A stretch of 64,000 bases of DNA, from IMG/VR virus record IMGVR_UViG_2860815047_000004. One strand, 5' to 3'. Positions 4,335 to 64,000 of this stretch are shown here, piece by piece. The notes beneath the pieces are model-generated. The model made no database searches. It saw nothing but the letters and a program-made list of their open reading frames with translations, and was not told the DNA's origin. Origin of the DNA: an uncultured virus (IMG/VR IMGVR_UViG_2860815047_000004). Taxonomy: Duplodnaviria > Heunggongvirae > Uroviricota > Caudoviricetes. The translations under genes were made by a program, and so were the position numbers. Each line of letters starts with the position of its first letter. Positions within the stretch are counted from its first letter, which is position 1.

Positions 4335-4470
4335 TGAATGAGGTTTTATTTCTGTATGAAAACTTAGAATTCCTCACGTATGCTCTTGTTATCTCTGTTT
4401 TTGAATGCTGTAAATTGAATAAAATTTATATTTTAACTAGAACATAACCACCTCCTTTAATTTTGAGGGA

Positions 4471-7020
4471 TTACTTATTTAAGCAGATGGCAATGCCATA
4501 GCCAAGCTTGTCTGAATATGGGGTTACAATCTCCATAGCCTTCCAAGAGTAAAACCTGTCTTCTGTTTTTGTGCCGATGCCATAATTACCTTCAATACGA
4601 TCTCCCACAGAAACAGTGCTGTCCACTTTCACATAAACCTGTCCAAGTAAGCCGACTATGTTCCATTCAGGGCGTTCTTCACGGGGGACGTAATCTATTT
4701 TTTCAATCCATTCAGGGTTTACTTTAGGCAGTTTCTCAACATCACCGGTTTCTGGGTTGACTACATCTTCATATATGTATCCACCAAATTCATTCTTTAA
4801 ATATCTACCTTGCCAGTGAATATCAGCTCCGCCTAAAATAGTTCCTGCAGTTTCGGAGATTACTCCGTGTACATCTTCACCTTTTCTCGCTGGGCGAATT
4901 TTAGCTCCTTCAAGAGTGACAATTGTTCCTGTCGGAATTGCTTTTCCGTCAAGGCTTTCAAAATATTCAGCGTAATCACTGAAAGTGGCTCCGCCATTCA
5001 TCTTGCCGGTAGATGTTATATCTCCGTTCATGGAGTTTAGCATCCATTTGATATTCGCTCTTGATGGGGTAGAACCATATCCACCAACCACCATATAGCG
5101 ATCATTTGTACCGAGTTTGACTCCTCCCGAAGATAAGATAGTTCGTGAGACATTATCGCCTTCAATGTGGGATTCGTTTGAAGACATGACTGTGCTACGC
5201 GAACCGCTAACGGAACTTGCTCCGGAAGAGGAAAACACTCCTGTTCTAACACCAGTTGCTTTTGCCCCACCAGTGGTGCCTATAACAGCAGAAGCTTCAC
5301 CTGATACTTCAGGCTGTCCAGTAGACGCTGCTATTAAGCCGGTGCTAGATTTGGGTACTCCAGAAGAGGTGGCAATCCTTGTCCCGCCTTTTATATTATT
5401 TGGTACAAAAGTGTAATCAACTCCTGCAATTCTGGCAGCCTTTTTGTATTTTTCCACTGAAATTCCCATTAGGCTTACCTGAGAATTAGAACAATATACA
5501 CCAATACTGTCAGCTTTCCCGTCGCCTATCAAACTTGCATTAATAAGCTTTACATTTTCTGTGCCACTGCCAATACGCACACCGATTCTCGCCGATTCAA
5601 AACAATTTACATTTGAAATATTTACATTATCTGATTTTTGATCCCCACCGTATACATAAATGTCAGCTCCAGCTGTTTTGAAGTTAGAAATAGAGAGATT
5701 GTTTAAATTGATGTTTCTTGATTTAAATTGCGTAGCGATTGCGGGATTTCCTTTGTAATCATAAGAAGGGTCTCCAATTGCGTTAAAGTTTGAAATGTTG
5801 ACATTTCTGTAAGCTGAGATTACTAGTGCCCGTGGGCTCAACTCTTTATAAAGGTCACTAAAGATTGGAGACTTCGCAGTACAGTTAACAACATTAATGT
5901 CGAATGCACTAGTGGAGATTTTATCAGAAGCACGATGAAAGCCGATGTGTCTAAAATCAAATGCACGAATGTCATTCTCTGAGTAGCAGTTGATTAAATT
6001 TACGTTTCTTGCTGCAGGCGCTCTATTGTGGGCTTTAACTTCAAAACCTCTGCAGTTTTTCTGACTGTTGCAGTTCACCAGCCATACGTTTCTAGAACCG
6101 TCATCAATTTCAAAACCATTTGAATTTGATGAGCCTTTGTCATGAGCAGACCCATTGGCATTGTATGCGTGACAGTTAGTGAAGTAGATGTATTCAGAAT
6201 AGTGAGTTGTGAAGCCATCGTCACCGAAATTAGTTGCAGTACAGTTTTCAATCCAAACATATCTACTGCCCTTCGGTTGATAATAATCAGCACCATCTGA
6301 AGAAGTGTTCCAAATAGGAGAGCTTACATCAAAACCATGAAGACCGGGATTTCGAGCATTGACGTTTCTAACCCGAACAAATTTAGAGTTAACAATACCC
6401 ACACAGTTTGCATTTGTTCCATTTGTAATGGTGTTGTCCTTTTTGTCTAAATTCCAATCGAGGTCTAAGTCTTCAATTAAGATATATTCATTTCCGTTTG
6501 TGTAGTCGCTATTGGTTAACACACAAGATGTTCCGGTAGCAGTTGGGTGAAGCTTGATAATAGATCCTGATCCAACACCGTAAAGTCTGACATAAGAAGG
6601 GATATGTAATCCTTGAACCATATAAATACCTGCGGGTACAAAAACTTCTCGCTTCCCGCTGGAAAAAGCAGTTTTAAAAGCTTCAGAGTCATCAGTAACC
6701 CCGTCACCCTTAGCTCCAAAATCCTGAACATTGACACTTCGTCTGATAAATTCATTTAAGACTTTATCAACAATTGTTGCACCGGATGCTGGGATTTTTG
6801 AAATGTCTCCAATAGTGTTTGTGATATCTGTTAAACCAGAATCGACTGTGCTTATTACGTTTTTAATATCCTTAGAAGCTTTATCAAAAGCCTCTTGAAT
6901 ATCGTCTGCAGTATATCTGATATTATTTGATTTTAACCCTATAGCATCAATGGGTATCCATTGCTCTGTTTCTTCGTCCATATAACCCATTGTGTTTACG
7001 GGAATTAAATTGTCGCTCAA
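4471..7020 (-). CDS. Tailspike/pre-neck appendage-like beta-helix protein with peptidase G2-type autocleaving C-terminus
   Basis: VNVQDFGAKGDGVTDD pectate-lyase-3 start; DYAEYFES and EWNIVGLLGQV C-terminal motifs; yomE position. Confidence 0.88.
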   Translation of the reverse strand: MSDNLIPVNTMGYMDEETEQWIPIDAIGLKSNNIRYTADDIQEAFDKASKDIKNVISTVDSGLTDITNTIGDISKIPASGATIVDKVLNEFIRRSVNVQDFGAKGDGVTDDSEAFKTAFSSGKREVFVPAGIYMVQGLHIPSYVRLYGVGSGSIIKLHPTATGTSCVLTNSDYTNGNEYILIEDLDLDWNLDKKDNTITNGTNANCVGIVNSKFVRVRNVNARNPGLHGFDVSSPIWNTSSDGADYYQPKGSRYVWIENCTATNFGDDGFTTHYSEYIYFTNCHAYNANGSAHDKGSSNSNGFEIDDGSRNVWLVNCNSQKNCRGFEVKAHNRAPAARNVNLINCYSENDIRAFDFRHIGFHRASDKISTSAFDINVVNCTAKSPIFSDLYKELSPRALVISAYRNVNISNFNAIGDPSYDYKGNPAIATQFKSRNINLNNLSISNFKTAGADIYVYGGDQKSDNVNISNVNCFESARIGVRIGSGTENVKLINASLIGDGKADSIGVYCSNSQVSLMGISVEKYKKAARIAGVDYTFVPNNIKGGTRIATSSGVPKSSTGLIAASTGQPEVSGEASAVIGTTGGAKATGVRTGVFSSSGASSVSGSRSTVMSSNESHIEGDNVSRTILSSGGVKLGTNDRYMVVGGYGSTPSRANIKWMLNSMNGDITSTGKMNGGATFSDYAEYFESLDGKAIPTGTIVTLEGAKIRPARKGEDVHGVISETAGTILGGADIHWQGRYLKNEFGGYIYEDVVNPETGDVEKLPKVNPEWIEKIDYVPREERPEWNIVGLLGQVYVKVDSTVSVGDRIEGNYGIGTKTEDRFYSWKAMEIVTPYSDKLGYGIAICLNK

Positions 7021-7033
7021 TATATACTCCTCC

Positions 7034-7849
7034 TTATCCTTTTCTAATCCAAACCATACTTCCGTCAGGGGGTTCTACAGAAGGTTTTATCCTCATCTTT
7101 TTGGGAGCATTGTTCGTTCTCAACCATACTGATCTGATGTTGTAAGGCTCAACATAGCTGGAAACAATGTTGAAACCATCATACTTATCTGACACGCTAA
7201 TATTTATCCAGTCGAAACCATCCCATCGATATTCAATGCCTGTTTCTTTTACAGTGACAGTCCAACCAATTTGAGGGGAAGGATAAGTGTTTAATAAATC
7301 CTGATAGGTGTACACAAACGGCAAGTAAATCTTCCTAGTGTTTTCAACTACATATTCATAATCTGATGTTGCTTGTCTGCACCAATTTGTTATTTCAATA
7401 CATCGCTTGGTGACACGTTCACATTCAGCAATACGCTCATTGATACGAATAATGGCATCTTCAGCATCATCAACTAAGCCTTGAAGCGTTTCAATGACCA
7501 TATTTCCTTGTCGTTTAATCCAAATTCTTGAGGCAGGGAAGAAGGATGCGCCTTCTCCTTGATATGTAAAAGTAAGTGATTTGCCTTCATTTGAACCATT
7601 GAAAAAGACAACTCCCATAAGGTAATCAACCTTAAAGTAGTTGTCTTCTAATTCACCATTTTCAATTTCTCGCCATTCTTTACTGTCACCACTAACCTCG
7701 ACTCTGTACTCACGGTTAGGTACTTCTGTAAGTAAGACTCGACCATTGTAAACAGTTAAAGTTTCACTATAGCTTAAATAAGGGTCATCGATTGAACCCT
7801 TCCTTTTTTGAGAAAGGGTAGGGTCGTTATAGAGCTGAGGAAAATCCAA
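7034..7849 (-). CDS. yomF: Tail/baseplate protein (YomF-like)
   Basis: 271 aa, syntenic with SPbeta yomF. Confidence 0.7.
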   Translation of the reverse strand: MDFPQLYNDPTLSQKRKGSIDDPYLSYSETLTVYNGRVLLTEVPNREYRVEVSGDSKEWREIENGELEDNYFKVDYLMGVVFFNGSNEGKSLTFTYQGEGASFFPASRIWIKRQGNMVIETLQGLVDDAEDAIIRINERIAECERVTKRCIEITNWCRQATSDYEYVVENTRKIYLPFVYTYQDLLNTYPSPQIGWTVTVKETGIEYRWDGFDWINISVSDKYDGFNIVSSYVEPYNIRSVWLRTNNAPKKMRIKPSVEPPDGSMVWIRKG

Positions 7850-7942
7850 ACTAAATTCACCGTCCTTTCTTTATGTGTAATTGATTTGAGCAATTCTTCC
7901 AAGTGCGCGACTCTCTCTTCTAAACTCTGCAGTCTTTTCTCT

Positions 7943-8110
7943 CTAAGCCTTTTTCCGTGTACTCCTAACAATTCCCATGATCACTATATATACAATCGCA
8001 ATACCAACAGTTACACCCTCAATTTTTATAAAAAAACTATTCAAAATTATTAATAAAAACGCTAGTACTGACGCAAACCAGTGTATAGATTCATATTTTT
8101 TGTCACTCAT
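7943..8110 (-). CDS. Small accessory membrane protein (possibly frameshifted)
   Basis: MSDKKYES... with two TM segments; GAGGGG RBS. Confidence 0.55.
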   Translation of the reverse strand: MSDKKYESIHWFASVLAFLLIILNSFFIKIEGVTVGIAIVYIVIMGIVRSTRKKA

Positions 8111-8335
8111 TGCTGATCCCCTCACTCTTTCTGTTAAACACTTTATATACCAAAATCCATCATGACACAATTTCTACTATGGGTTCAAGTGGAAAAATGG
8201 TTTATAATTTACAAGGTATTTTTAAGTAAAAAAGGGGTATTATCGTATGAAAACGGACAAGTCTTTGCATAAAAGAAGAATTTTATTTAGAAAGAAAGTT
8301 GAAACAAAAAAAGACTCCCGTGTAGGGAATCAGTT

Positions 8336-9314: not shown

Positions 9315-12724
<3,410 letters not shown>

Positions 12725-21137: not shown

Positions 21138-21240
21138 CTCTCCATATTATCGTCAAATATGGAAATATGTTTAAGGCTTTATACATAAGCAAAATCCCTC
21201 AATTGAAGGATTTTGATTCTGCATAAAAGAGGGATTTCAT

Positions 21241-22257
21241 TTACACTTCAAATTTTGCTTTCTTGTCTTGAATAGCATCTTTATTTACTTCTAGATAGTG
21301 ATTTTTTGTTACGTCAGTTCCTTTATGGTTCAATAATTGAGACACGTCCTCTAGACTCATGCCACTGTGATACAGAAGGTTACTACCACTGTGCCTTAAA
21401 TCATGACAGTGTAATTCAGGAATATCAATTATTTCTCCGATTCTCTTTATCCAATACCCTTGTAAAGTTCCGGTTTCAGCTTTTTTCCATGTGCCTCCGT
21501 ACTTTGTTATGAAAAGGTATTCGCATTCAATTCCGTTTTCGGATCTGTATTCCAGCCATTCCTTAACAAGATCAATAGCTCTTTGAGAAGGGAAGAGGGT
21601 GACTTTGTATCCTTCTTTTTCAATGACATCTTCCACCCGAAGTCTTTCAAAGTCAATTTGTTCAACTTTAACGTTGCTTATAGCATTAGCTCTGGCCATC
21701 GTGGAGAGACCGAATTCAAAGAAGAGCTCTAACTGAATATTTTCCTTCTTTTTAAGTCCTTTTCTGATTTCTTCAACTTGTTCTTTTGTTAGGAAGGTCT
21801 GTTTAATTTGAAGTTTTTCACCAGTTCCAGCCTTAGGTCTGTCTAAGAAGTCAACGGGATTCTCTTTGATCTTACGTTTTTTCCTTAAAAATAAAAAGAA
21901 TGAGCTAATGCTACTCATTCGTCTCTGAATTCTTCGTTCATTATTGCCTAGAATACTGGTACAGAATGCAACAAAGTCTTCAATTAAATCAACCATATCA
22001 TCAGGATCTTCTTTAATAATATCCACAATGTGCTGATTATTGTAATTCTCTAAAATGTATACCAGCCATTGATTGAAATCTGATTGATATCCCACTTTAC
22101 TGGATTCCGAAAGGTTCATGTTTTTAAAGACAAAATACTTTCGGATTAATTCCGCATTTTTGGGGTTAATTTTGTTGACCTTTTCTTTTGTTGCATATGC
22201 TATCTTTTTTCTGGCCATTAATACACCACCGTTATTCTGTTTTAATACCACTTGCAT
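21241..22257 (-). CDS. yomM: Tyrosine recombinase (YomM-like)
   Basis: Catalytic pattern R (STMARANA), HDLRH, LNH, HY; real start probably MARKK at 22218. Confidence 0.9.
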   Translation of the reverse strand: MQVVLKQNNGGVLMARKKIAYATKEKVNKINPKNAELIRKYFVFKNMNLSESSKVGYQSDFNQWLVYILENYNNQHIVDIIKEDPDDMVDLIEDFVAFCTSILGNNERRIQRRMSSISSFFLFLRKKRKIKENPVDFLDRPKAGTGEKLQIKQTFLTKEQVEEIRKGLKKKENIQLELFFEFGLSTMARANAISNVKVEQIDFERLRVEDVIEKEGYKVTLFPSQRAIDLVKEWLEYRSENGIECEYLFITKYGGTWKKAETGTLQGYWIKRIGEIIDIPELHCHDLRHSGSNLLYHSGMSLEDVSQLLNHKGTDVTKNHYLEVNKDAIQDKKAKFEV

Positions 22258-23133: not shown

Positions 23134-23215
23134 CTCATTTCCTCCTTATATATCCTCTGCACACATTAAAAAAGACACCTCAATAGGGGAGAGGTGTCTA
23201 AATAAAACTTGTATT

Positions 23216-24064
23216 TTATTTATAATCTTCTTTTAGAACTTTCTCTGTATAAGCTGGGTTATTTGTAAATAGTCCATCCACTTTCAACTTAAGCATTTTG
23301 GATGTGAGTGCTCTTTCTTTATCAGCGTTAAAAAACACATGTACTTTCATATTGTTTTTGTGGACTAAATCAACAAAACCTTTACCAACAAATTTTGCAT
23401 TAGGGCCAACAACATTAGAATATTTTTTTATTTCGTTTAGCTTTGATTTGCTCATCGGCTTAATGTCTTCATCTTTCAAAAGTTGAACAAGAGGAACATC
23501 ACTGTTTAGCTTATGTAACTTCTTTAGACTTTTGTCACTAAATGACTCTAAAACAACTTTGTTATTAGCGATTAGTTTATTTTTAGAAAGTATGTCAATT
23601 AACTTTTTCTCCATTACTAATTCGCCTTTGTTGTTTGTTCTAGTCTCGATGTAGTAGTTTGTAGTTTGTCCAAACTTTTTAATGATTTCTTCAATCGCTA
23701 AGATCTTTTGTCCTTTTCCAGTACGCAGCTTTTTAATCTGATCTAATGTAAGATCTTCAACTTCCCCTTTACCGTTTGTGGTTCGATCAACAGTCTTGTC
23801 ATGGTTTGCGACTAGGTGACCGTCTTTGGTTTGTCGTAAATCAATTTCAATGTAGTCTGCTTTGTCTTTTATTGCTCGTTCATAGGAGAGTAGGGTGTGT
23901 TCTGGCTCAATTTCCGAGGCGCCTCTGTGTGCAATCATTAGCGGCTCGTATTTTTTACTGCTTCCTTTCCCATAGCCTAAAGCTGATGAATCAACTTCGT
24001 TAAATGAACATCCTCCTAGTATGACTAAAGCAATAGTTAATGTTATCAATTTTATTTTTTTCAT
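23216..24064 (-). CDS. Glycerophosphodiester phosphodiesterase (GDPD) lipoprotein
   Basis: Lipobox LGGC; IAHRGAS, PEHT, IEIDLRQTKDG, VDGLFTNNP motifs. Confidence 0.92.
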   Translation of the reverse strand: MKKIKLITLTIALVILGGCSFNEVDSSALGYGKGSSKKYEPLMIAHRGASEIEPEHTLLSYERAIKDKADYIEIDLRQTKDGHLVANHDKTVDRTTNGKGEVEDLTLDQIKKLRTGKGQKILAIEEIIKKFGQTTNYYIETRTNNKGELVMEKKLIDILSKNKLIANNKVVLESFSDKSLKKLHKLNSDVPLVQLLKDEDIKPMSKSKLNEIKKYSNVVGPNAKFVGKGFVDLVHKNNMKVHVFFNADKERALTSKMLKLKVDGLFTNNPAYTEKVLKEDYK

Positions 24065-26221: not shown

Positions 26222-26283
26222 CTCCTAAATCTGTTTAAAAACTGACTTTTATTTAAAAAGGAGAGGGGAAGAATCCCCTCAAA

Positions 26284-38931: not shown

Positions 38932-38967
38932 TTACACTGCTCCAATCTGAATAAAATTAAAGTTTTA

Positions 38968-43888: not shown

Positions 43889-44219
43889 CTTTGATACCCT
43901 CGGTTTCCCGATATTTTATTAGGGAATAGACCATATCATCATCTGTGCTAGACAGATGGTCAGCGCTTCATAATAAGGAATTTCACCTTATTATTACTCC
44001 ATAAAGGATGGTCGTTGCACCTTCATTTACAAGTGCTTCCCAGCATGATGTAAACGCTTGGCACAGGGTTATCGTATCGATAAGGACTTAGAATTCCCCT
44101 GTTAGCACACTCATTGACGATCATTTCCTATCGCTGCTTTTCGCTGAATGCACACCCTAGATTTCTAGGTTCACTGACTTTTCATCCGCATATCGCTATG
44201 CGACGCGACTAAAAATTTA
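43889..44219 (-). mobile_element. Group I intron (331 nt, no homing endonuclease) in yonO
   Basis: Exon ends ATC GAT; P1 CGAU-UAAAUUUUUA-GUCG with U.G; P7-type GACCAU/AUGGUC; GAAA-capped hairpins; terminal G; splice gives NNFTID|FAKTLF. Confidence 0.9.
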
Positions 44220-46094
44220 ATCGATAGTAAAGTTATTTTCCATACATAGCCATTTGATCACGTCCATATTTATGTTGTCACTGTTCCATATCTTAGTGAT
44301 GTTGTTGCTGTACTCCCCGATATTGATCCCATAAGCAAGAGTTAGTGCTTCATAGATGTTTTTGCTATTAATCTCTTGTTTCTGGGCTACAGACATTTCA
44401 TAATACAACGGAACGATGTTTTCCATATTACGCTTGGCAATATTGACGATTAACTCATCAGGAATAATTAAGGCCTTATCCCCGTCATTGTCGAACTGCA
44501 GCAGTTTAGATATTGGATCATGAATGCTGGTGTAAACACCTGGGGTAATGAACCACTTTTCATATTCCTCATCTTTTTTGTTCCACCTAACACCATGCTC
44601 TCTGAATAGGTGAGGGGAGCGGAGGATATCAATATACCCTTCATCATATAAAGAACAATGGACATCACTTCCTGAAAGCAGTCCTTTTGGATTCTGGATG
44701 TTCAGAAATAATTTTTCGCAGAAAGCATACAGGTCAGGGCATAAGTATGTATAACGAGCACCATCAACAAGCAATTTTCCTGATTTGGCATCTTTAATCA
44801 TGCTTTTCTTTTTATTTTTAATAATTTCTTTCGTGTGATCATCGTTAAGAAGTTCTGGATATAGAAGCAAAGCGTTCTGAAGAGCTGTTCGATGTTTCTT
44901 TTTCTCCGTAGCTCCAAGAACTCTTAACATGGTTTCTTTGTCAGTTCCCAATGTGGTAATCTCTTTTACAGTCTTAGAGCTCATTTGAATTAATTCTTCA
45001 TCGGAGATATCTGTAAGTGTCTGGAGCATTTGATAAGTGAGCTTACCTTCAACAGAAGGGTCTTCTTCGTTGAGTTTTGCCCCTAAGCATCCATATTTTT
45101 TATAATTGAATTGATATTCTTCCCACGATGAATAATACTTCCACATTTTAAACTGGCTTTTAGTGAAGATAATTTGAACATCTTCTTTCACTACGTCCCA
45201 TTCCTTGCCGTATATATCAGTTACTTTAAAAGCTTTGTTTTCCTCAGCAAATTTACGAAAATCAAAAGGGACTAATAAACCCTTTACCCATGGGAGTCTT
45301 ACCATGAAGCTTTTACGACTTAGAGTGGGGAGTATCATTCCGCAGCCATCTGTATGTTCAATGGGAATGTTCATTGTTTTTCGTGTGATATCGTAGGTAT
45401 CTCGATCAATGTAGTCAACGAGACTCGACACATCAGTTTCTAAGTCGTTGACAACAATGGCTTTATCAATATCAATCTCCCAAGGGCTACTGGCACTGTT
45501 AGAAAGGGCCATATAGCTATTCCATTTGTTAATGCTACTACCACCAAGGGAGTTGATCTTTTCAATACTTAAGCCGCATGTCAAAGCATCCTGATACTTA
45601 TCGTAGGTGCTTTTTTTAATGAAACATGACTTCTTTGTACGAATTTGACCGGCGCTGCTCGTGAAATAAATGTATTTTTCATTGTTATGTAAAAATCCCT
45701 GATCAATAATGTCCTTCAATACTTCAAAATGGTAAGTCTGGACAACCATGATTTCCTCTGAAAGGGTGTTTTCTTTAATCCCTAATGTTCGGGTCAACAC
45801 TGAATCAAATAAAGAAATCACTTTATTATCCCTTAAGCTGTCAGTTCGAAGTGTTCTTATGTTATTATGTTCTTCGAATGCGGAATAGAGGCATTCTTTA
45901 AGGTATGTAATTCTTTGTGATATGTATTTCTTATGTTTATTATTTACATTGTCTAATGTCTTAAGATAATCTCTGTATCTATAAGACTTCAAAATCTTAT
46001 TATGTAATGAATTTTCTTTGTCATTATAAAATGCTGATGTGTCCACGCTGTATATGTGAACTTGCTTAGACAATCCGTCTTTTTTTCTTTTCAA
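44220..46094 (-). CDS. yonO: YonO single-subunit RNA polymerase, exon 1
   Basis: HTDGCG, LRSPH and catalytic QFDNDGDK motifs; spliced product 843 aa. Confidence 0.92.
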
Positions 46095-46670: not shown

Positions 46671-46848
46671 TTAAATCATCCTTTTGCTGTTTGAATAAAT
46701 TTTATAAAATGACTGGTTTACATACAAGCAGAGTATGATTATTTGCATTAAGATACAAAAATATTTGCATTTAAATGCAAATAGGCAATATAATAATTGT
46801 ATATCAACCAAGATACTTCAAAATCATCAGATATTAAGGAGGGGTCAC

Positions 46849-47133
46849 ATGGATACTTATTTTGCTTCTGTCATTGACAACTTAACTCGAAATGATCTGT
46901 ATATTCTAGGCTTATTGAGCGATGAAGGGGCTGATTTAAAGTTTAAATCAATTAGGAAGAAAACCATTCAAGCTAAAACTCAACTAACTGATGCTACTTT
47001 TAGAAAGAGCATTGATCGTCTTGAGGCCTTGCAGTTTATTAATATAGTGAAAAACAGTAAAGAGCATACAATTTTTATTACTCAATATGGTCAAGAAGCT
47101 TTGAGATATCAATTAGAAGGGGAGAGGGTTTAA
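46849..47133 (+). CDS. Winged-helix DNA-binding protein (TubR-like candidate)
   Basis: AGGAGGGG RBS; LTDATFRKSIDRLEALQFI...IFITQYGQE wHTH pattern; stop overlaps the tubulin gene start. Confidence 0.7.
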   Translation: MDTYFASVIDNLTRNDLYILGLLSDEGADLKFKSIRKKTIQAKTQLTDATFRKSIDRLEALQFINIVKNSKEHTIFITQYGQEALRYQLEGERV

Positions 47134-48245
47134 TGTTTGGTTTTATTGGAGTTGGTCAGGCCGGCGGAAGTGTAGCAGATGAAGCAATGAAGAGAGGATT
47201 TCATTCTGTCGCAATAAATTATTCACTTTCAGACCTTAATTCATTGGTCAATATTCAAGATAAGCTTCATCTGGTTGGGACAGAAGGAGTTGGCAAAGAA
47301 AGAAGTGTAGCAGCGAAACATATGAAAAACAACTGGGAATCTTCTATTGAGTTTATAAAGAACACAATGGAAAAGCCTTCAGTACAAGTCATTTTTGTTG
47401 TTTTCTCTGCAGCTGGTGGAACTGGTTCAGGGGTAGCTCCTATATTATTAGAATTGTTAAACGAATGTCTTACTCATAAAACAATAGTTGCTGTACCCAT
47501 CCTTCCTGACAACAATGAAGTATTGGTCAATCAGATGAATTCACTGGAGTTGCTTGATGACTTATCTATGCCAGAGACATGTGTTTTACCTTTGGATAAT
47601 CAAATGGTTTTGAGCAAATATGAAGGGAAGATTTCTGAAAGCAGACTATACAAGGAGACAAACAAGATGTTCCTTGATTTAATCGAAGTCTTACTCAATT
47701 ACACGGACAGAGGCTCAAAGATCAGTACATTAGACAGGAAGGATTTAAATCAGCTTTTTGACACACCAGGAATCATGACTATTGCTCAAACAGACCTCAA
47801 TGAATTTACAAATGAGGGTAAGTATTTTGATAAGCTGCATGAAGATATACAAAAGTCGTGGAACAATTCGATTTTCACTCCTGTTGAGTTTACAAATGTG
47901 ATGAGAGCTGGAGTTATTCTGGATGTTCATGAGTTCTTAACGGAACATATATCGTATAATGAGCTGTTTAATGTCTTTGATAACAAGATGCCCCTAGACT
48001 TATTTAAAGGGCATTATGATAAAGGTAATAGGGCGATAACGATTCTTAGTGGATTAACCTGGATCAATGAGCGAATGAAGCAGTTAGATGATTTAATTGA
48101 AAATGGGAACACTGAAGTTAAAGAAACAACTGTTTATAAAGCGAAGAATCGCCGTAGAGAGGATTTATTTAAACCGAAAAAACTGGAGAACAAGGAATCG
48201 AAAAAGACCTCTTATATGGAGGCACTGAAGAGACTAAAGCGCTAA
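47133..48245 (+). CDS. Tubulin/FtsZ-superfamily GTPase (TubZ-like)
   Basis: IGVGQAGG, GVGK, AAGGTGSG tubulin signature, LDN, LDRKD T7-like loop; basic C-terminal tail. Confidence 0.9.
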   Translation: MFGFIGVGQAGGSVADEAMKRGFHSVAINYSLSDLNSLVNIQDKLHLVGTEGVGKERSVAAKHMKNNWESSIEFIKNTMEKPSVQVIFVVFSAAGGTGSGVAPILLELLNECLTHKTIVAVPILPDNNEVLVNQMNSLELLDDLSMPETCVLPLDNQMVLSKYEGKISESRLYKETNKMFLDLIEVLLNYTDRGSKISTLDRKDLNQLFDTPGIMTIAQTDLNEFTNEGKYFDKLHEDIQKSWNNSIFTPVEFTNVMRAGVILDVHEFLTEHISYNELFNVFDNKMPLDLFKGHYDKGNRAITILSGLTWINERMKQLDDLIENGNTEVKETTVYKAKNRRREDLFKPKKLENKESKKTSYMEALKRLKR

Positions 48246-53987: not shown

Positions 53988-53988
53988 A

Positions 53989-55785
53989 ATGACTGTAAAG
54001 TTTAACAAACAACAATTAGAAGCGATTAATTTTTATAAAGGGGCTTGTGCAGTCATTGCAGGCGCAGGGAGCGGTAAAAGCACCGTTCTCCTTAACCGTG
54101 TTAAAACATTGGTGAGGGATTACGGTGAAGATCAAGAGGATATTTTAGCCATCAGTTTTACGCGTAATACTGCAAATGAGCTTAAGAAGAAATTACATAA
54201 ACAGAAATTAGCTAGTGTGAATGTAGGTACATTTCATTCAGTATGCCGTAACATTCTTCTCAAAGAAGGAATTGAAATTAACGAGAAAAATACGATTAAA
54301 GAATGGCAGCGAGAAAACTGTTTTAAATCACTTGAAGAGAAGCCAGACATTAAAGACATTACGGGTTTCATTAGCTACCAAAAGAACTTTTTAAGGAGCT
54401 ACACAGACGAGTTTTTAATTAAAGAGAGTAAATATACTGAGGAGCAATTACGTCTCTTCTATAAGGAGTATGAGGCTTTTAAATCCAAAAACGGACTGTA
54501 TGATTATGATGATTATTTATTGGAGTGTTACAAGGTGCTAAAAAACAATAAACATAAGTATACGTATGAATTTATCCTTGTAGACGAGCATCAAGATTCT
54601 AACTTAGTACAAAATCTCATTTTGAAAGAACTTTGCGCCTCTGGGAATATATTCTGCTTATTCGATTATAGGCAAGCTATTTACACATTTAGAGGCGGTA
54701 ATACTGAGTATTGTATGGAGTTTGAAAAGGATTGGGAAAACGCCACTGTTATTAACCTAGATACAAATTATAGATCAAATAAAAACATTGTTGATAACGC
54801 AAATAGCTTTATCAAGGAATACTACGGTGACTATGAACATTATGCAGACTCCATCCCTAATATTCATAACAATGGCGAGATTCAGACACTAACGTATCAG
54901 GACAGAGAAACAGAAGGACTGAATACAGTTGATAAAATTGAAACATTGCTTAAATCTGGTGAAAAACCATCAGAAATTTGTGTCCTTTATAGATTAAACT
55001 CTCATTCTAGCTATGTTGAGAATGAACTAAAAAGGCGTGAAATTGAATATGATATTTCTAACAATGGGAGCTTTTTCAAGAGAAAAGAGGTAAAAGGGAT
55101 TGTAGCGTATTTAAGATTAATTCGTGATCCACATGATGATGCAGCCTTTCGAGATATCTTCACACTAAGGAATGATCCATTTCGTTATTTTAGCAATAAG
55201 AATTTAAAAGATGTTGAGTCATTTGCCGGACAAACAAATATGTCCCTATATGAGGCCATGTTAAATTTGAGATTTGATCGTCCGACTCAAAACGATAATG
55301 TCTTGAAATTCCAAAGTATGATTAATAAACTCCAAATGCAAGTGCTTAAAGGGATTGCCGTGGAAGAATTGATCGACAATGTAGTTAAAACTTTCAGAAT
55401 GAATGATTACATAGAAGAGAAATACCTCGATGAAGATGAGATAACTGACAGAAAAGAATCTCTCAATACCATGAAGAAATTTGTTAAGAATAATAACTTA
55501 GAGCAGTTCATTAATTTTGTATACGGCAGCAAGCCAAGTAAAAAGAAAAATGAAAATGCCGTGCGATTAATGAGTATTCACGCAAGCAAGGGTCTAGAAT
55601 TTAAACATGTGTTCTTAATTGGGGTTGAAGATGGTAAGTTTCCTCATAGAAAAAGCGATCTTTTAGATGAAGCAAGATTATTTTATGTCGGTGTAACAAG
55701 ACCTAAGGAGAGCCTGTATCTTAGTCAAATTGGTCACTGTAATATGTTTTTTGATGAGTATAGGCAACAGGAGCTTGTTTGCTAA
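53989..55785 (+). CDS. UvrD/PcrA-family SF1 helicase
   Basis: AGAGSGKS, ISFTRNTA, GTFHS, LVDEHQD, NYRS, SIHASKGLEF, RLFYVGVTR. Confidence 0.95.
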   Translation: MTVKFNKQQLEAINFYKGACAVIAGAGSGKSTVLLNRVKTLVRDYGEDQEDILAISFTRNTANELKKKLHKQKLASVNVGTFHSVCRNILLKEGIEINEKNTIKEWQRENCFKSLEEKPDIKDITGFISYQKNFLRSYTDEFLIKESKYTEEQLRLFYKEYEAFKSKNGLYDYDDYLLECYKVLKNNKHKYTYEFILVDEHQDSNLVQNLILKELCASGNIFCLFDYRQAIYTFRGGNTEYCMEFEKDWENATVINLDTNYRSNKNIVDNANSFIKEYYGDYEHYADSIPNIHNNGEIQTLTYQDRETEGLNTVDKIETLLKSGEKPSEICVLYRLNSHSSYVENELKRREIEYDISNNGSFFKRKEVKGIVAYLRLIRDPHDDAAFRDIFTLRNDPFRYFSNKNLKDVESFAGQTNMSLYEAMLNLRFDRPTQNDNVLKFQSMINKLQMQVLKGIAVEELIDNVVKTFRMNDYIEEKYLDEDEITDRKESLNTMKKFVKNNNLEQFINFVYGSKPSKKKNENAVRLMSIHASKGLEFKHVFLIGVEDGKFPHRKSDLLDEARLFYVGVTRPKESLYLSQIGHCNMFFDEYRQQELVC

Positions 55786-55830
55786 CAATCAAAATAAAAT
55801 GCATATTTTAAACAGAATGGTAGTGATAGT

Positions 55831-56085
55831 ATGACAAAATTTAATGGGGTACAACTAACAGAAAAATCAATTCGAATGACTAGAAAGTGGTTTTCTGATA
55901 ATGCGATTGCTTGTATTGAAGAAGTAAAACGTGGAGAAGTAAAAGTAAATGATTGTGAATATTATTTTGCATGGAGAAATAAAGAAGCTAAAGAATATAT
56001 GGAAGGTAAACACGACCATACTGTAACATTCTTACAACGTGCATACTTTATACAAACAGGTGAAAGTGTAGCTTTATTACCTTAG
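55831..56085 (+). CDS. Hypothetical protein
   Basis: 84-aa ORF between two 11-6-11 sites. Confidence 0.7.
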   Translation: MTKFNGVQLTEKSIRMTRKWFSDNAIACIEEVKRGEVKVNDCEYYFAWRNKEAKEYMEGKHDHTVTFLQRAYFIQTGESVALLP

Positions 56086-56131
56086 AGAAATATGAATAAA
56101 ATAACAATTTAAACGGAATGGAGAGATTGAA

Positions 56132-56263
56132 ATGAAAGAAGTTAGCCACAACGAATGGATGAATGCGGTTAAGAAGTTGAATGAAGGGCAACCAAGCGTT
56201 ATTGATCTGGTTAATCAGCAAATTGAATCATATGAGAATGAAAAAGAGGGCAGGGATGAATAA
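56132..56263 (+). CDS. Small ORF (43 aa; absent from ORF track)
   Basis: GGAGAG RBS; MKEVSHNEWMNAVKKLNEGQPSVIDLVNQQIESYENEKEGRDE. Confidence 0.55.
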   Translation: MKEVSHNEWMNAVKKLNEGQPSVIDLVNQQIESYENEKEGRDE

Positions 56264-56480
56264 AATAGTCTGGCAGTTGCCTGTTATCCAAAGCAATCTA
56301 ACAGATCATGGTTGGATTCATCCAAAAGCAAAATACCACGCCTATATTGATAACAAATCTGTTTGTGGAAAGTACGGTCAACATACAGATTACTTTGAAA
56401 CTGGAATAGAAGAATCAAAGTTGATGGCAAATAAGGAATGGGCTTGCAAAGTATGTTTGAAGAAGTTGGGGATTTCTTAG
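56256..56480 (+). CDS. Hypothetical Cys/His protein
   Basis: Likely start MNKIVWQ; H...C...CKVC. Confidence 0.6.
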   Translation: MNKIVWQLPVIQSNLTDHGWIHPKAKYHAYIDNKSVCGKYGQHTDYFETGIEESKLMANKEWACKVCLKKLGIS

Positions 56481-56504
56481 ATTAACAGAAAGGAGAAGGC
56501 TGAA

Positions 56505-56708
56505 ATGGGAAAAAGATTTCTAGAAAAGCTAGAATCATATGAAAAAGAAGCTTATGAAGGACAGTGCGGTATAGATTGGCTTACAGAATTAGGAGAAAAC
56601 GTAACGATCTATATTCGTGAATGTGCGAGAACTAATACACGAGCTACAATTGGAGGGCTTGAAAAGCACATTGATGAAGTGGCTAAGAAATTTCTGTATT
56701 CTCAATAA
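56505..56708 (+). CDS. Hypothetical protein
   Basis: AAGGAG RBS; stop codon lies in an 11-6-11 site. Confidence 0.65.
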   Translation: MGKRFLEKLESYEKEAYEGQCGIDWLTELGENVTIYIRECARTNTRATIGGLEKHIDEVAKKFLYSQ

Positions 56709-56727
56709 AACAACAATTTGAAATAGA

Positions 56728-57108
56728 ATGGAGAGAATTAATTTGGATAAAAGTCAATTAATAAAGGTTGGTTCAACAGTATATCTTAAACCAATCAATA
56801 ATGCCGCACGATATGGAAGAAAAGATATTCTAGAGAAAGTTGTGTTAAAAAAAGGAAGGAAATATTTCTATGTTGGAAATACGGGAGAGACAGAAATAAG
56901 ACGCATGTTCAAATTTTCTTTAGAGGATATGACAGAAGTGACAGAATATAGTCCTGACTGGGAACTTTATTTGTCCAAACAAGATATTATTGATAAGGAA
57001 GAGAAGAAAAAGTTAATTTTCAATATACGCTCAGTCTTTGATAGATGGTCATCGGTTGATTTAACGTTAGATCAATTAAGAAGGATACATGCAATCATAT
57101 CTGAATAA
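56728..57108 (+). CDS. Hypothetical protein
   Basis: 126-aa ORF bounded by 11-6-11 sites. Confidence 0.65.
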   Translation: MERINLDKSQLIKVGSTVYLKPINNAARYGRKDILEKVVLKKGRKYFYVGNTGETEIRRMFKFSLEDMTEVTEYSPDWELYLSKQDIIDKEEKKKLIFNIRSVFDRWSSVDLTLDQLRRIHAIISE

Positions 57109-57138
57109 AACACAGTTTTAAAGAGGGGAGAATAAAGC

Positions 57139-57465
57139 ATGACAAAATCAAAATTAAATGAAAACATCCTTCAATTCTTACTGGACAACGGCTTTAAACT
57201 AAAGGAATATGAAGATCAGGGGTTGACATTTTATTCTAAGGAAATAAAAGACAGTCAAACATTGAAAAGATTAATTGAACATCATTATGAACTCGAGGAA
57301 GATGAAGAGATTAATACAAAAGGAGTAAGCTTTACTGTAGAGATACAGACAAATGGGGAGTCACCTCAATGGGTCTTTACTGGTAGGCATGAATTGTTTG
57401 GCATTCTTGAAGGTCAACAGCAGTTTTTTGAATATGTAAAAGAAATTAAGCCATTAATTAGTTAG
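57139..57465 (+). CDS. Hypothetical protein
   Basis: GAGGGGAG RBS; 108 aa. Confidence 0.7.
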   Translation: MTKSKLNENILQFLLDNGFKLKEYEDQGLTFYSKEIKDSQTLKRLIEHHYELEEDEEINTKGVSFTVEIQTNGESPQWVFTGRHELFGILEGQQQFFEYVKEIKPLIS

Positions 57466-57492
57466 GCAACTGAGACTAAGGAGAGATGAACA

Positions 57493-57600: not shown

Positions 57601-57744
57601 TGAAACGTTAGTATTCCAAAGCCTATTTTAAATAAAAACACCATTTAATTCGAAACGCTTCTTTATCATCGTAAAGAAAAAATGTAAAATCCACCTATAG
57701 GCATGAGTTGTCAATGATATTGAGACATCCTTGGGGGGAGAAAT

Positions 57745-58629: not shown

Positions 58630-58642
58630 GTTACTTTAAAAT

Positions 58643-59244: not shown

Positions 59245-60339
59245 TTAGCTCGCAATCCTTGTTTTGACTGGTTTGTTTTTCTTGATATTACGTAATCTAA
59301 GAGCGGGTTTTTCCACTATTCTGTACGAAAGAAATGCGGATGCAGCAGTAACAGCGATTAGGGCTATGATCAGCTGGTAATCAGACAATGTTTTATTAAT
59401 TCCAGTGTATAAGAAGATGTTGATGATCACCATGTGCCATATGAAAATCCCCATACTGATATCATCTAACCGGTTCAGCTGCCACAATATCTTCGGCCCA
59501 TTGTACCCGAACCAAATAATTGCATAGCTCAAAGGAATGAACCATAAAAAGCTCCATAGTGTACTGTTTATTGAACTGAGATGCATGGGATCTGCCTTAA
59601 AGAGTAAAAATAAAATTACCGAAGATGAAAATAAAACAATATGCTGCGGCGGTGACTTTCTCCATGCCTTTGCCCAGAAGATGCCCAAAGTGAAATAAAA
59701 CATCTGCGGCAGGAAAGAATGTAGGTAAAGCCCACCGATTACACTGTCAGGCGAGTACTTCAATGTTATAAAAGAAACCAACACACTGAAAGCGGAAACA
59801 GCAAAAGAGCAAAGAAGCATTTTTTTGAATCCGAAACGTTTATAAAACCAATAAATTGCGGGTAACACAAGGTAAAAGCTAATCTGAACAGGAATTGTCC
59901 AAAGTGAATCGTTAAGGCGACCTGTGCCAATATGATGGAATATGTCAGGGAAGTATTGAGGATATAGCACAAGATTACTAAGAAGCCATGTCCAGTACTC
60001 TTTAGTAGTGAATACCGTTAATGAAAGAGCTCCCAGAACAATTAGCAGTACAGTGGAGGCAATAGCATAGGTATAAATTGCGGGCGCGATCCTAATAATT
60101 CGGCTCCAATAAAAATTAGTTACATTATTACCTTTAAGCTGGGATCTCTCATAAGAAGTGAAAAGAAAAAATGCACTTAGAAAAAAGAAAATTGATATGC
60201 CGGTGTGAAATATTGCTTTACTCTCTGGAGTATAGCCAAAGACAGAAATGTTTAGATCTCTTGTAGCATGACCAATAAGCACACAGAGAGCAGCAAACAA
60301 CCTAATAACAAAGAAACAGTTAGAATGCTTTACGTTCAA
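59245..60339 (-). CDS. Acyltransferase family 3 (OafA/OatA-like) membrane protein
   Basis: IRLFAALCVLIGH, GISIFFFLS, FYWSRIIRIAP, SLWTIP, SMGIFIWH, SYRIVEKP. Confidence 0.9.
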   Translation of the reverse strand: MNVKHSNCFFVIRLFAALCVLIGHATRDLNISVFGYTPESKAIFHTGISIFFFLSAFFLFTSYERSQLKGNNVTNFYWSRIIRIAPAIYTYAIASTVLLIVLGALSLTVFTTKEYWTWLLSNLVLYPQYFPDIFHHIGTGRLNDSLWTIPVQISFYLVLPAIYWFYKRFGFKKMLLCSFAVSAFSVLVSFITLKYSPDSVIGGLYLHSFLPQMFYFTLGIFWAKAWRKSPPQHIVLFSSSVILFLLFKADPMHLSSINSTLWSFLWFIPLSYAIIWFGYNGPKILWQLNRLDDISMGIFIWHMVIINIFLYTGINKTLSDYQLIIALIAVTAASAFLSYRIVEKPALRLRNIKKNKPVKTRIAS

Positions 60340-61377: not shown

Positions 61378-61494
61378 AAAGATATTGATCACTTAAAGTG
61401 ATCATGGTATACTAAAGTTACAAGAACAGTAAATACTTTCAAATTTTCTGGGTCTACATAAAATCGTACTTTTAATCAGAAGGGAAGTGACACT

Positions 61495-61827: not shown

Positions 61828-62018
61828 AATGTTGATTGACTGAGTGATGGAGAGTTTACTACGAAACGAACCTTGGTAAGTTTGTTGAAAGGGAATAAAA
61901 TTAAGGAGGATTCTTTATAAAATCATTCTTTTATGTGGAACTAAGACAACTGTGGAACGAAAAACAATCATCAGAACATGAAAAGGTGTTTAGAACGCAG
62001 ATATGAAGGAGTGAATTA

Positions 62019-63089: not shown

Positions 63090-63103
63090 AAAAGAGCATT
63101 AAA

Positions 63104-63356: not shown

Positions 63357-63608
63357 TTGATTGGAATAGCATATTTCTTAATACTCTGGCTGGGTATTGG
63401 CTTTCTGACAGGATTTAAGGCCTTATTCGTTGATCAGGTTTATGATGAAGAGTTTAAGCAGGAACTGATTGATTCATTTTCACCAGGTATGGAGCAGAAT
63501 ATGATTGAACTGTTCTTTAAGAATAAAATAAATATCATGGTGTTTTACATATTAATTGGATTGCTGCCACTGGCCATAAAAATTGCTGGTCTGCTGAAGA
63601 GGAGTTAG
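63357..63608 (+). CDS. Small membrane protein
   Basis: AAGGAGGGG RBS; two TM segments. Confidence 0.65.
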   Translation: MIGIAYFLILWLGIGFLTGFKALFVDQVYDEEFKQELIDSFSPGMEQNMIELFFKNKINIMVFYILIGLLPLAIKIAGLLKRS

Positions 63609-63610
63609 CT

Positions 63611-63826
63611 ATGCCGGTTATCGATACCTTTTTTGTTATTCAATTTGAAAATGATGATTACTTCAAGTCATTTAAATTAGATGGAAGTGGTTATAAGACA
63701 TCTAAGGGGCTTCATAGCGCTTCTAAGTTCACTACAATGTCAGAAGCCTTAGCGATCGCAAATGAGCTACATATGGAGTTTAAAGCCACTTCTGCCATAA
63801 GGCAAATTGAAGTTATTACTAGGTGA
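63611..63826 (+). CDS. Hypothetical protein
   Basis: GAGGAG RBS; 71 aa. Confidence 0.6.
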   Translation: MPVIDTFFVIQFENDDYFKSFKLDGSGYKTSKGLHSASKFTTMSEALAIANELHMEFKATSAIRQIEVITR

Positions 63827-63837
63827 GGAGTGTTCAG

Positions 63838-63969
63838 GTGTACTGGATTGAATGGATTGAGGATGGGGAGAAGAAAAGTATTGTTGCTGAGGGCTGGGTG
63901 GAATGGGTCACAATCCTGGAAGACCTTTATCAGCAACGATTTGAGTATGTTGAATGGAAGAGAATTTAA
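63838..63969 (+). CDS. Small Trp-rich ORF (43 aa; absent from ORF track)
   Basis: GAGGAG RBS then GTG; MYWIEWIEDGEKKSIVAEGWVEWVTILEDLYQQRFEYVEWKRI. Confidence 0.55.
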   Translation: MYWIEWIEDGEKKSIVAEGWVEWVTILEDLYQQRFEYVEWKRI

Positions 63970-64000
63970 AAAACACAAGTCTAAATAAAATTAATGTAAA

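Follow-up and report, generated by a model that had tools for sequence, protein, structure and literature searches.

A palindromic 28-base site between the genes of SPbeta-type Bacillus phages: a possible operator-like boundary element and recombination linker

The 64,000-nucleotide stretch of an uncultured tailed phage that was analysed here (IMG/VR record IMGVR_UViG_2860815047_000004; hereafter the window) carries a dispersed palindromic site of 28 bases, TCTnnATAAAA-N6-TTTTATnnAGA. The site is real, phage-specific and found family-wide in SPbeta-type Bacillus phages, and it marks places of gene gain, loss or swap between relatives. We tentatively propose that it may be an operator-like boundary element, so far undescribed, with a second role as a recombination linker. 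Binding sites of SroE and SroD may reportedly be given by Brady et al. in Cell Host Microbe (2023), and part of the motif result may thus already be in print.

The half-site consensus is T-C/T-T-n-n-A-T-A-A-A-A. A sequence-only reading of the window had noticed the motif, and it is indeed commoner than chance: there are 11 window matches with at most three mismatches, as compared to a mean of 0.29 and a maximum of 2 in 100 dinucleotide shuffles. With a weight matrix derived from three relatives alone, the window being excluded, 10 window sites score at least 18 bits (0 in 30 shuffles) and 12 at least 14 bits (0.3 in shuffles). Scanning for TAAAA-Nk-TTTTA with k from 0 to 14 gave a sole peak at k = 6, with 9 occurrences in the window versus 0-2 at other spacings; the corresponding numbers for prophage contig C23 of the nearest host genome (G001), for G002 and for SPbeta are 24, 22 and 34, versus 0-6 elsewhere. 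The outer TCT/AGA triplets are enriched although the scan pattern did not select for them. Four relatives, including SPbeta and phi3Ts, harbor 32-37 copies each (37 in SPbeta), in early and late operons alike. The seven distinct strict matches in G001 are all located on contig C23, the reversed control pattern has no matches in G001, and one of the 301 genomes in the family of G001 contains a match. Among the 80 listed of at least 127 matching IMG/VR stretches, most contigs are ca. 60-170 kb long.

The proposed 11-6-11 dyad layout was borne out by the spacing scan. Each site has a 6-base core that is particular to its own locus, while the 11-base half-sites of the two arms vary independently. 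Watson-Crick pairing between the arms never exceeded the expectation for independence at any variable position of 115 distinct sites (44 observed versus 48.7 expected for positions 2/27, 24 versus 32.9 for positions 4/25). Since the arms lack covariation, the motif looks like a protein-binding site on double-stranded DNA, suited to a dimer, and not like a hairpin. Placement at gene boundaries was confirmed too, and the register is fixed: one arm contains the stop codon of the upstream gene, and after the other arm come the ribosome-binding site and start codon of the next. Among 100 co-directional sites, 22 have the last base of the stop codon at site position 9, 14 have it at 5-6 and 5 at 16-17; the distance to the next start codon peaks at 14 bases, and positions +3 to +7 past the site are rich in G/A.

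The letters quoted in the sequence-only reading are present at all 16 of its coordinates. Thirteen strong sites (at least 12 bits) occur in the window, twelve of them at gene boundaries and already listed; the other match (11701-11728, 17.0 bits, three mismatches to the consensus), missing from that list, lies inside the coding ORF 9315-11948 (877 aa) and is of uncertain status. The site at 4414-4441 (core tttata, 22.9 bits), 3' of the stop of an 849-aa late gene, is part of an island of 88 bases that G001 matches at 100% and SPbeta at 88.5% identity; the DNA to either side is unlike. The flanks of the site at 8264-8291 (gaagaa, 26.6 bits) have no homology in three relatives. The site at 21218-21245 (gaggga, 21.7 bits) overlaps the stop codon of a late-operon tyrosine recombinase gene on the minus strand (21241-22257, at the SPbeta yomM position; PF00589, E 2.1e-21); homology with G002 and SPbeta stops at 21240, and the core is common to G001, G002, SPbeta and phi3Ts. 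Homology with G001 stops at 23220 within the site at 23197-23224 (cttgta, 25.5 bits), which holds the stop of ORF 23216-24064. The site at 26230-26257 (actgac, 23.6 bits), directly 5' of the ribosome-binding site of a yomS-like gene, has its SPbeta counterpart at 44411, and the site at 38946-38973 (ttaaag, 23.7 bits) belongs to a 63-base homology island shared with SPbeta at 57142.

Further sites divide the region from 55.8 kb into small units. The site at 55789-55816 (tgcata, 24.7 bits) begins 4 bases 3' of a helicase stop; homology with G002 begins at 55791, and the core and right arm are common to G001, G002 and SPbeta, with unlike left flanks. It bounds a one-gene unit on the plus strand (55817-56090, ORF 55831-56085) with a site at either end, which is absent from G001 and from a contig of strain run X15, with a loose end at 56108. 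The next site, 56091-56118 (taacaa, 12.8 bits), and the site at 56700-56727 (caacaa, 20.1 bits, with the stop at 56708; homology with G002 begins at 56705) are direct repeats with cores alike at five of six positions. They enclose a plus-strand unit of two ORFs (56119-56699; 56181-56480 and 56505-56708) that is missing in run X2, where a 58.9-kb contig joins 56094 to 56704 and skips 609 bases, with 7 ambiguous letters. A decayed copy with a 5-base spacer follows at 57100-57126 (7.0 bits, holding the stop at 57108); the corresponding copies reach 19.7 bits in G001 and 27.2 bits in G002, an additional G is present in one strain, and homology with G001 begins at 57104. For the site at 57627-57654 (acacca, 14.2 bits) homology with G002 begins at 57618 and a loose end of run X4 lies at 57629. 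At the locus of the site at 61453-61480 (tcgtac, 27.4 bits), G002 has two copies, 64017 and 63740, 277 bases apart, and the window site corresponds to the left arm of the former (10/11 letters) joined to the right arm of the latter. Homology with G001 and G002 stops at 61933 within the site at 61912-61939 (tcattc, 23.4 bits), where the X15 contig ends as well. Most copies of the earlier list thus stand, the one at 57100 being weak, and the stop codons placed inside sites (56708, 57108, 61827 and 23216) are all correct. At 61819 just a left half is present, the G+C hairpin at 63081 resembles the annotated SPbeta terminator 73688-73717 and does not count as a site, and the copy at 63980 is clipped by the window end.

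The sites coincide with mosaic boundaries, as had been suggested for gene gain and loss. Where the intergenic gap was at least 30 bases, a mosaic boundary was found in 88 of 108 informative comparisons at site junctions versus 184 of 401 at other junctions, and where it was below 30 bases in 15 of 18 versus 166 of 385; the genomes are related and the pairs ordered, which overstates the independence of these counts. Homology-block ends are thus about twofold commoner at sites than at other gene junctions. Seven of 26 sharp block ends between SPbeta and phi3Ts are at most 20 bases away from a site (ca. 0.5 expected). Four other strains gave 24 joint ends, 11 of them no more than 5 bases from a site; the 24 runs found are all stored in contig form. 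Two single-gene units with a site at each end vary in presence between strains. Among 65 pairs that share one flank only, the near arm (identity 0.87-0.90) and the core (0.85-0.88, versus 0.30 between unrelated sites) both follow the shared flank, and the far outer arm stays at background level (0.55-0.59 versus 0.47-0.51).

The sequence-only reading had suggested that the units may be integron- or pdif-like mobile cassettes. This was not supported: no unit was seen at a second locus, as a homologous unit flanked by sites of differing cores at both ends (0 of 51), the cores are locus-specific, many recurrent breakpoints lack any site, and the enrichment is only about twofold. A different matter is whether a phage tyrosine recombinase (YopP/SroD or the enzyme of the late operon) uses the sites for genuine recombination, which we consider unlikely but the most serious of the rivals. 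Since each locus has its own core, recombination would be limited to same-locus sites of two phages resident together, or to neighbouring sites whose cores are nearly identical, and the result would be addressed module exchange and gain or loss of single units. In favour of this are the 11-6-11 layout, in which the inner arms are invariant, arms that follow the flanks with a core that stays with the locus, and the hybrid sites at empty loci. Moreover, cores alike at five or more of six positions occur in 5 of 80 adjacent direct site pairs versus 17 of 3423 distant pairs (4 independent loci), while no two strong sites within one genome share all six core letters, the lone 6/6 pair being weak. 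Each phage also encodes two recombinases that retain R, K, HxxR, H and Y and lack a known site (in the product of 21241-22257 these residues line up with a XerC-like structure), and the phage integrates via a serine recombinase (PMC8612738). On the other hand, the late-operon recombinase is a poor candidate: among phages that share one motif its alleles are only 23% (SPbeta YomM) to 37% (G002) identical, and a 60% homologue has the same place in Brevibacillus phage Sundance, where the surrounding 41 kb contain no TAAAA-N6-TTTTA match, one 16.3-bit matrix match and no other enriched palindrome. YopP of SPbeta and phi3Ts is 33% identical. Breakpoints could not be placed inside the core; the switch in G001 falls in 'atgg' to the right of the site, and that in run X2 falls in the left arm, within AATAAAA. 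Many breakpoints lack a site, and in the 65 one-flank pairs conservation of the core does not exceed that of the flank.

Other readings are less probable still. A passive or architectural element, i.e. an in-phase A-tract and T-tract that bends DNA or a loose binding site of the HU homologue, used in compaction, replication or packaging and tolerated only between genes, would make the link to mosaicism a by-product. The AAAA and TTTT runs begin 10 bases apart, the HU homologue (42701-42976 in the window; PF00216, E 3.3e-33) is ca. 70% identical across phages, and divergent or convergent junctions hold 25 of 151 sites. We nevertheless regard this as rather improbable, since the conserved TCT/AGA triplets and the exact 6-base spacing indicate sequence-specific reading; Sundance, moreover, has an annotated DNA-binding protein beside a yonK-like gene and no motif within 41 kb. 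An RNA-level element (hairpin, processing site or translational operator) or a host-factor target would account for the fixed place between stop codon and ribosome-binding site, and a conserved host machine would be in keeping with a motif that stays constant from phage to phage, but dyad symmetry would be meaningless in single-stranded RNA, the non-covarying arms often show A-A at positions 6/23, and G001 has no strict matches outside its prophage contig, which leaves little probability for this reading. The alternative raised earlier, that the sites are the MrpR (YopR/SroF) operator, SPBRE, is refuted by the sequence. MrpR has a recombinase fold and ca. ten dispersed sites, with 10 ChAP-seq peaks, all at promoters (PMC10516654), as compared to 37 palindromic sites in SPbeta. 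From these ten promoters we derived SPBRE instances; the element common to nine of them, for example caaatacaaAAAATATGTATA upstream of aimR, is non-palindromic and unlike the motif. The repressor occupies, as a monomer, a box of 24-26 bases that differs between phi3T and SPbeta (PMC10516654; bioRxiv 10.1101/2025.11.27.690993). The repressors of SPbeta and phi3Ts are 30% identical, and the half-site consensus is the same in 18 SPbeta-only and 14 phi3Ts-only sites in DNA unshared between the two. SPBRE thus resembles the motif in being dispersed, repeated and phage-specific in the same phages, with a binder of recombinase fold, but differs in sequence, symmetry, number, placement and its variation between lineages.

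The reading we prefer is that the 28-base sites form a family-wide boundary element between the cistrons of SPbeta-type phages, read on double-stranded DNA by the dimer of one DNA-binding protein. This protein would have the same specificity across heteroimmune phages and would not be MrpR/SroF. Candidates are the unassigned Xer-like phage proteins (YopP/SroD keeps its catalytic residues), the HU homologue and a small conserved protein; YopP, YopQ and MrpR of SPbeta are only 30-39% identical to those of other phages, and a constant motif is therefore not expected of them. The most likely role would be an operator-like block or insulator of transcription in long prophage operons, although the 11-6-11 layout and two recombinase genes with intact catalytic residues fit a recombination site equally. 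Because the site and the ribosome-binding site are often the sole sequence common to unrelated neighbouring genes, the element provides a short linker, where related phages probably recombine and so swap, add or delete units of one to three genes at a fixed locus.

Several known systems invite comparison. The dif/Xer core sites and the pdif modules of Acinetobacter plasmids share the 11-6-11 layout, with conserved inner arms and a variable 6-base centre, and pdif modules enclose one to a few genes between bounding sites, as do the phage units; the present sites, by contrast, are phage-only and their modules stay at their own locus. In the PeSL (promoter-early stem-loop) cassettes of T4-type phages, and in the 'linker' idea of modular phage evolution, small accessory genes of variable regions likewise lie beside a repeated intergenic signal that goes along with their gain, loss or exchange, but the sites described here possess neither promoter consensus nor stem-loop, their spacers are locus-specific and no unit moved between loci. 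The stoperators of Cluster A mycobacteriophages, bound by the L5 repressor gp71, block transcription inside long operons of the prophage and are similarly present in tens of copies in both arms of a temperate phage genome, in very short intergenic gaps and often touching stop or start codons. They are, however, 13-mers that lack symmetry and point in the direction of transcription; being the site of the immunity repressor itself, they differ between heteroimmune phages, whereas the present sites are 28-base palindromes, distinct from SPBRE and identical in SPbeta and phi3Ts, which are heteroimmune.

Sequence comparison identified the window as a large part of a Bacillus phage of the SPbeta type, its minus strand carrying the late structural operon (~1-46 kb) and its plus strand the early genes (46.7-64 kb). 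Recognizable genes include a tyrosine recombinase (21241-22257, minus strand), an HU homologue (42701-42976), a YonO-type RNA polymerase (44217-46094) and a UvrD-type helicase (53989-55785). SPbeta, phi3T and related phages match the window only in patches, at ~79% identity; a prophage contig (C23) of genome G001 and the provirus record G002 match it as mosaic blocks, mostly at 88-98% identity. All genomes compared are related and not independent of each other, and gene calls outside SPbeta are crude ORF picks. At 46735-48245 on the plus strand, a winged-helix protein (132 amino acids; weak HTH_34 and DUF6293_C matches) is immediately followed by a tubulin/FtsZ-family GTPase of 370 amino acids (PF00091, E 1.2e-19). 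The two look like a TubR-TubZ-type partition or positioning pair, and in SPbeta the corresponding place is occupied by yonR and yonS. Within the plus-strand early region, an acyltransferase-3 family gene (PF01757, E 3.5e-29) lies on the minus strand at 59245-60339; it is likely an accessory gene, perhaps with a role in surface modification.

The site considered here is a 28-base palindrome, TCTnnATAAAA-N6-TTTTATnnAGA, with 11-base arms around a 6-base core, and individual sites are named by their start coordinate in the window. The copies cited by the sequence-only reading are all present in the window sequence. Among those regarded as degenerate, 57100 is indeed a copy, with a 5-base spacer, and 61819 a half-site, whereas 63081 is a terminator-like hairpin; a further match lies inside a gene at 11701. 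Tests of enrichment came out in favour of the motif: with up to three mismatches the consensus matches the window 11 times against 0.29 expected from the shuffled control, and a position weight matrix from three relatives returned 10 window sites of at least 18 bits and none in 30 shuffles. The least circular of the motif tests is the spacing count of the bare seed TAAAA-Nk-TTTTA, which the window contains nine times at k = 6, with 0-2 occurrences at each of the other spacings (k = 0-14). At k = 6 it is found 24 times in the G001 prophage contig, 22 times in G002 and 34 times in SPbeta (0-6 at other spacings), and the reversed seed arrangement gave no spacing peak. Although the outer triplets played no part in the choice of these 89 seeds, the left one carries T, C and T in 70, 47 and 58 of them and the right one A, G and A in 71, 48 and 78.

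Sites of at least 12 bits number 13 in the window, 32 in the G001 prophage contig, 37 each in G002 and SPbeta and 32 in phi3Ts. The SPbeta sites include those at 24122, 39880, 44411, 57142, 69418, 76165, 86880, 95123, 113658, 118464 and 131156 of its record. With genome G001 as the host-genome control, all seven distinct strict matches came from the prophage contig, and a control search with the pattern reversed gave none; G001 alone carried the motif among the 301 genomes of its family. A stricter pattern occurs in at least 127 IMG/VR stretches and, among the matches listed, most contigs are of ~60-170 kb. Because of these site counts, the restriction to the prophage in G001 and the family and IMG/VR scans, the motif is a trait of the SPbeta-type phage family, including the model phage SPbeta, and is not specific to the window. 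A second dispersed site with about three times the copies of the known operator was not found described in the accessible portions of the SPbeta/phi3T literature searched (including PMC10516654, PMC8270828, PMC8612738, PMC5467207 and preprints); Brady et al. 2023 or Lazarevic et al. 1999 might list the palindrome.

Across 115 distinct sites, complementarity of the arms at variable positions is no higher than independence predicts. This absence of arm covariation rules out a selected RNA hairpin or cruciform, and both candidates were rejected; it likewise speaks against an RNA-level or host-factor element, an identity that we consider very improbable. The sequences point to a site composed of two half-sites, each predicted to be read separately on double-stranded DNA. 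Sorted by junction, 151 sites comprise 100 between co-directional genes, 26 inside crude ORF calls, 13 between divergent and 12 between convergent genes. When the 100 co-directional sites were oriented by gene direction, 22 had an upstream stop codon ending at site position 9, 14 had it at positions 5-6 and five at positions 16-17; the distance from the site to the next start codon peaked at 14 bases, and a purine-rich ribosome-binding stretch occupies +3 to +7. Positions 4-6 are not alike in the upstream and downstream halves (p ~1e-6), a weak asymmetry that fits the presence of stop codons in the upstream arm. Several sites of the SPbeta record adjoin annotated terminator stem-loops or promoters carrying the SPBRE.

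SPbeta and phi3T are model phages for arbitrium signalling and for repression by recombinase-fold proteins, and the sequence-only reading had named the SPBRE, the operator of the master repressor MrpR (YopR/SroF), as the alternative identity of the sites. The SPBRE was reportedly defined by Lazarevic et al. 1999; Brady et al. 2023 reportedly found that SroE (YopQ) and SroF bind multiple sites and that SroD (YopP) is an auxiliary repressor. In the MrpR ChAP-seq study (PMC10516654), ten peaks are described at SPBRE-carrying promoters, with a motif of 15 bases. An element common to nine of the ten ChAP-seq promoter regions was recovered from shared 11-mers; upstream of aimR it reads caaatacaaAAAATATGTATA. 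Such instances are unlike the 28-base palindrome, and the suggested comparison with the published SPBRE, made with these promoter-derived instances, revealed no identity. A 2025 preprint (bioRxiv 10.1101/2025.11.27.690993) describes the repressor as a monomer on a 24-26-base box, the box printed for phi3T being different, and calls the role of SroE still unclear. The half-site consensus of the palindrome is identical in 18 SPbeta sites located in DNA absent from phi3Ts and in 14 phi3Ts sites located in DNA absent from SPbeta. Given the unlike sequence, the dyad symmetry of the site versus the asymmetric monomer box, and the location of 100 of the 151 sites between co-directional genes, there is next to no chance that the sites are SPBRE or MrpR operators.

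The window contains no clear copy of the SPBRE, the sole 12-mer within one mismatch of its core word being at 58638, and the repressor box of this phage probably differs from the SPBRE. At the SPbeta aimR promoter (76165-76230 of the SPbeta record, 26165-26230 of locus L002), the SPBRE instance is preceded at a distance of 12 bases by a palindromic site, and the SPBRE promoters of yorE, yorM and yosX each have one within ~100 bases. This proximity may reflect joint action with the master repressor or merely the larger intergenic gaps at promoters. The promoter of the YonO polymerase was rejected as an identity of the sites: the published work (PMC5467207) gives a single start site for this enzyme, upstream of yonK, where no palindromic site is present.

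The proposal that accessory genes are gained or shuffled as cassettes at the sites held in part: homology blocks end at sites and units are gained or lost there, but no movement between loci was found and the enrichment is not exclusive. When the window is aligned by BLAST with G001, G002 and SPbeta, homology blocks end in or beside sites at 21240, 23220, 55791, 56705, 57104, 61455, 61472 and 61933, and three sites form small homology islands. In the window, a block end falls at 12 of 13 site junctions versus 29 of 73 other junctions, the site junctions having longer intergenic gaps. In a gap-controlled test on ordered pairs of four genomes, a boundary was present at site junctions in 88 of 108 informative comparisons versus 184 of 401 elsewhere for gaps of at least 30 bases, and in 15 of 18 versus 166 of 385 for shorter gaps. 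The enrichment over ordinary gene junctions is thus about twofold, and recurrent breakpoints without even a weak site occur at 57474, 59200, 62604, 20655, 24900, 29135, 37828 and 49750. The first of these (57474-57489), at the end of the ORF 57139-57465, is common to G001, G002 and contigs of the other-strain sequencing runs X4 and X15. Seven of the 26 sharp block ends between SPbeta and phi3Ts lie within 20 bases of a site (expected ~0.5 for random places and ~4 for random gene junctions), and 11 of 24 joint ends in four runs of other strains lie within 5 bases of one. For laboratory phi3Ts-SPbeta hybrids, a preprint reports 16 junctions, 15 in homologous regions and one non-homologous, 'after yosA'; crossover resolution would be too low there because the parents are 99.7% identical over shared DNA and the junctions mostly lie in homologous DNA.

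Pairs of sites sharing only one flank (36 left-only, 29 right-only) bear on the place of the exchange point. Identity in these pairs is 0.87-0.90 in the near outer arm, 0.85-0.88 in the core (0.30 in unrelated sites) and 0.83-0.87 in the shared flank; in the far outer arm it drops to the background level (0.55-0.59 vs 0.47-0.51). Since near arm and core are as alike as the shared flank and the far arm is at background, identity appears to switch inside the site but beyond the core. The breakpoint, which the sequence-only reading had proposed to test for in the core, maps between core and far outer arm, and no extra conservation of core over flank was found in these pairs. Single crossovers map to the left inner arm in one case and just outside the right arm in another. 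Provirus G002 has tcgtac and tcgtgc sites 277 bases apart; the window has a single site there, whose left arm agrees with that of one G002 site (10 of 11 letters) and whose right arm is that of the other. In run X2, a 58.9-kb contig jumps over precisely 56095-56703, the stretch from site 56091 to site 56700, at a joint with seven ambiguous letters, and the unit between 55789 and 56091 is missing from G001 and from a run X15 contig. Near-identical cores were found in 5 of 80 adjacent direct site pairs versus 17 of 3423 distant pairs, at four independent loci; distant pairs served as the null because orthologous cores inflate the expectation when cores are shuffled across genomes. In 51 pairs of a site-bounded unit and its homologue in another genome, the cores agree at both ends in 30 cases and differ at both ends in none; no integron- or pdif-like shuffling from site to site is apparent.

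The enzyme named by the sequence-only reading (21241-22257) is a sound tyrosine recombinase with its catalytic residues in place, but a weak candidate for acting on the sites: it is 37% identical to the gene at the same position in G002 and 23% identical to YomM of SPbeta and phi3Ts, while the motif is unchanged. Among phages, the recombinase is closest to a protein of Alicyclobacillus phage KKP_3916 (66%) and one of Brevibacillus phage Sundance (60%); the Sundance gene has the same place in a late operon like that of SPbeta. The surrounding 41 kb of Sundance contain no TAAAA-N6-TTTTA seed, a single 16.3-bit matrix match and no other enriched palindrome. A recombinase with intact catalytic residues has a fixed place in the tail-gene operon of the window, G001, G002, SPbeta, phi3Ts and Sundance, phages that integrate via a serine recombinase. 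Its alleles are 23-37% identical, and G002 has a replaced segment from 21240, inside a site, to 22209; a function in dimer or concatemer resolution is one guess. In a second Xer-like protein, YopP/SroD, the catalytic residues are kept, at 33% identity between SPbeta and the others. The list of conserved proteins used in this comparison took one aligned segment per query and a 60% coverage filter; it is incomplete and served for the named ones alone. In an alignment to an XerC-like structure, the YopP/SroD homologue in locus L014 (2254-3312) has R, K, HxxR, H and Y preserved, and the YopQ/SroE homologue (3389-4738) matches Pfam family DndB (E 4.5e-16); the two correspond to 82254-84738 of the G001 prophage contig.

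The sites resemble the mycobacteriophage L5 stoperators in number, in being spread over early as well as late operons and in overlapping stop codons, and this makes an operator-like role our best guess: by analogy, the sites may act as a roadblock or insulator in the prophage, a reading held tentatively and at less than even confidence. The sites would be bound by a dimer of one protein with the same specificity throughout the family, and would be placed as the standard junction between cistrons. Site and ribosome-binding site together, as the only sequence that unrelated neighbouring genes have in common, could provide a short linker at which homologous or microhomology recombination takes place; such a linker would explain the boundary pattern without a dedicated enzyme. 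If the sites are operators, the 37 SPbeta coordinates form a concrete target set for the unassigned Sro proteins or another factor. That they are instead an architectural DNA element appears quite improbable.

It is rather doubtful that the sites are true recombination sites of an orphan Xer-like enzyme, with the locus-specific cores as addresses. The 11-6-11 layout and the hybrid sites fit this, and it would explain clean swaps of small genes at gene borders in 130-kb phages; against it stand the constancy of the motif despite the divergence of the late-operon alleles, the Sundance homologue in DNA without a seed match, and the crossovers outside the core. An 'addressed' module exchange in SPbeta-type phages, in which YopP/SroD or the late-operon recombinase would act on ~35 dif-like sites with locus-specific cores, is unlikely. 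If true, it would let co-resident relatives swap, gain or lose one- to three-gene units at gene boundaries with gene order unscrambled, and phage mosaicism would be partly enzyme-catalysed and not accidental. Whether operators or recombination sites, the palindromes provide exact, testable junctions for phage engineering and for interpreting mosaic prophages.

Compared with known systems, the sites differ from those of integrons in several respects. An attC site is a folded single strand with imperfect paired arms, whereas arm pairing here stays at the level of independence; integron cassettes move between positions and arrays, unlike the present units (0 of 51 with different cores at both ends); and an integron has its integrase next to attI and a cassette promoter heading the array, whereas here the recombinase gene belongs to the tail-gene operon, a single site lies at its 3' end, and sites occur throughout the genome. 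REP/BIME palindromes form stable stem-loops with compensatory changes, which the present sites do not show. Xer/dif core sites, including pdif, have the same layout of two ~11-base inverted arms around a 6-8-base centre and are cleaved by a cognate tyrosine recombinase where arm and core meet; candidate enzymes are present here, yet the motif stays constant although identity between their alleles is 23-37%. Stoperators are asymmetric, oriented and the operator of the immunity repressor, which when bound stops elongating RNA polymerase, whereas the present sites are palindromic, differ from the SPBRE and are the same in heteroimmune phages; the likeness lies in the many copies in short intergenic gaps of early and late operons, 13 in the window and 32-37 per relative.
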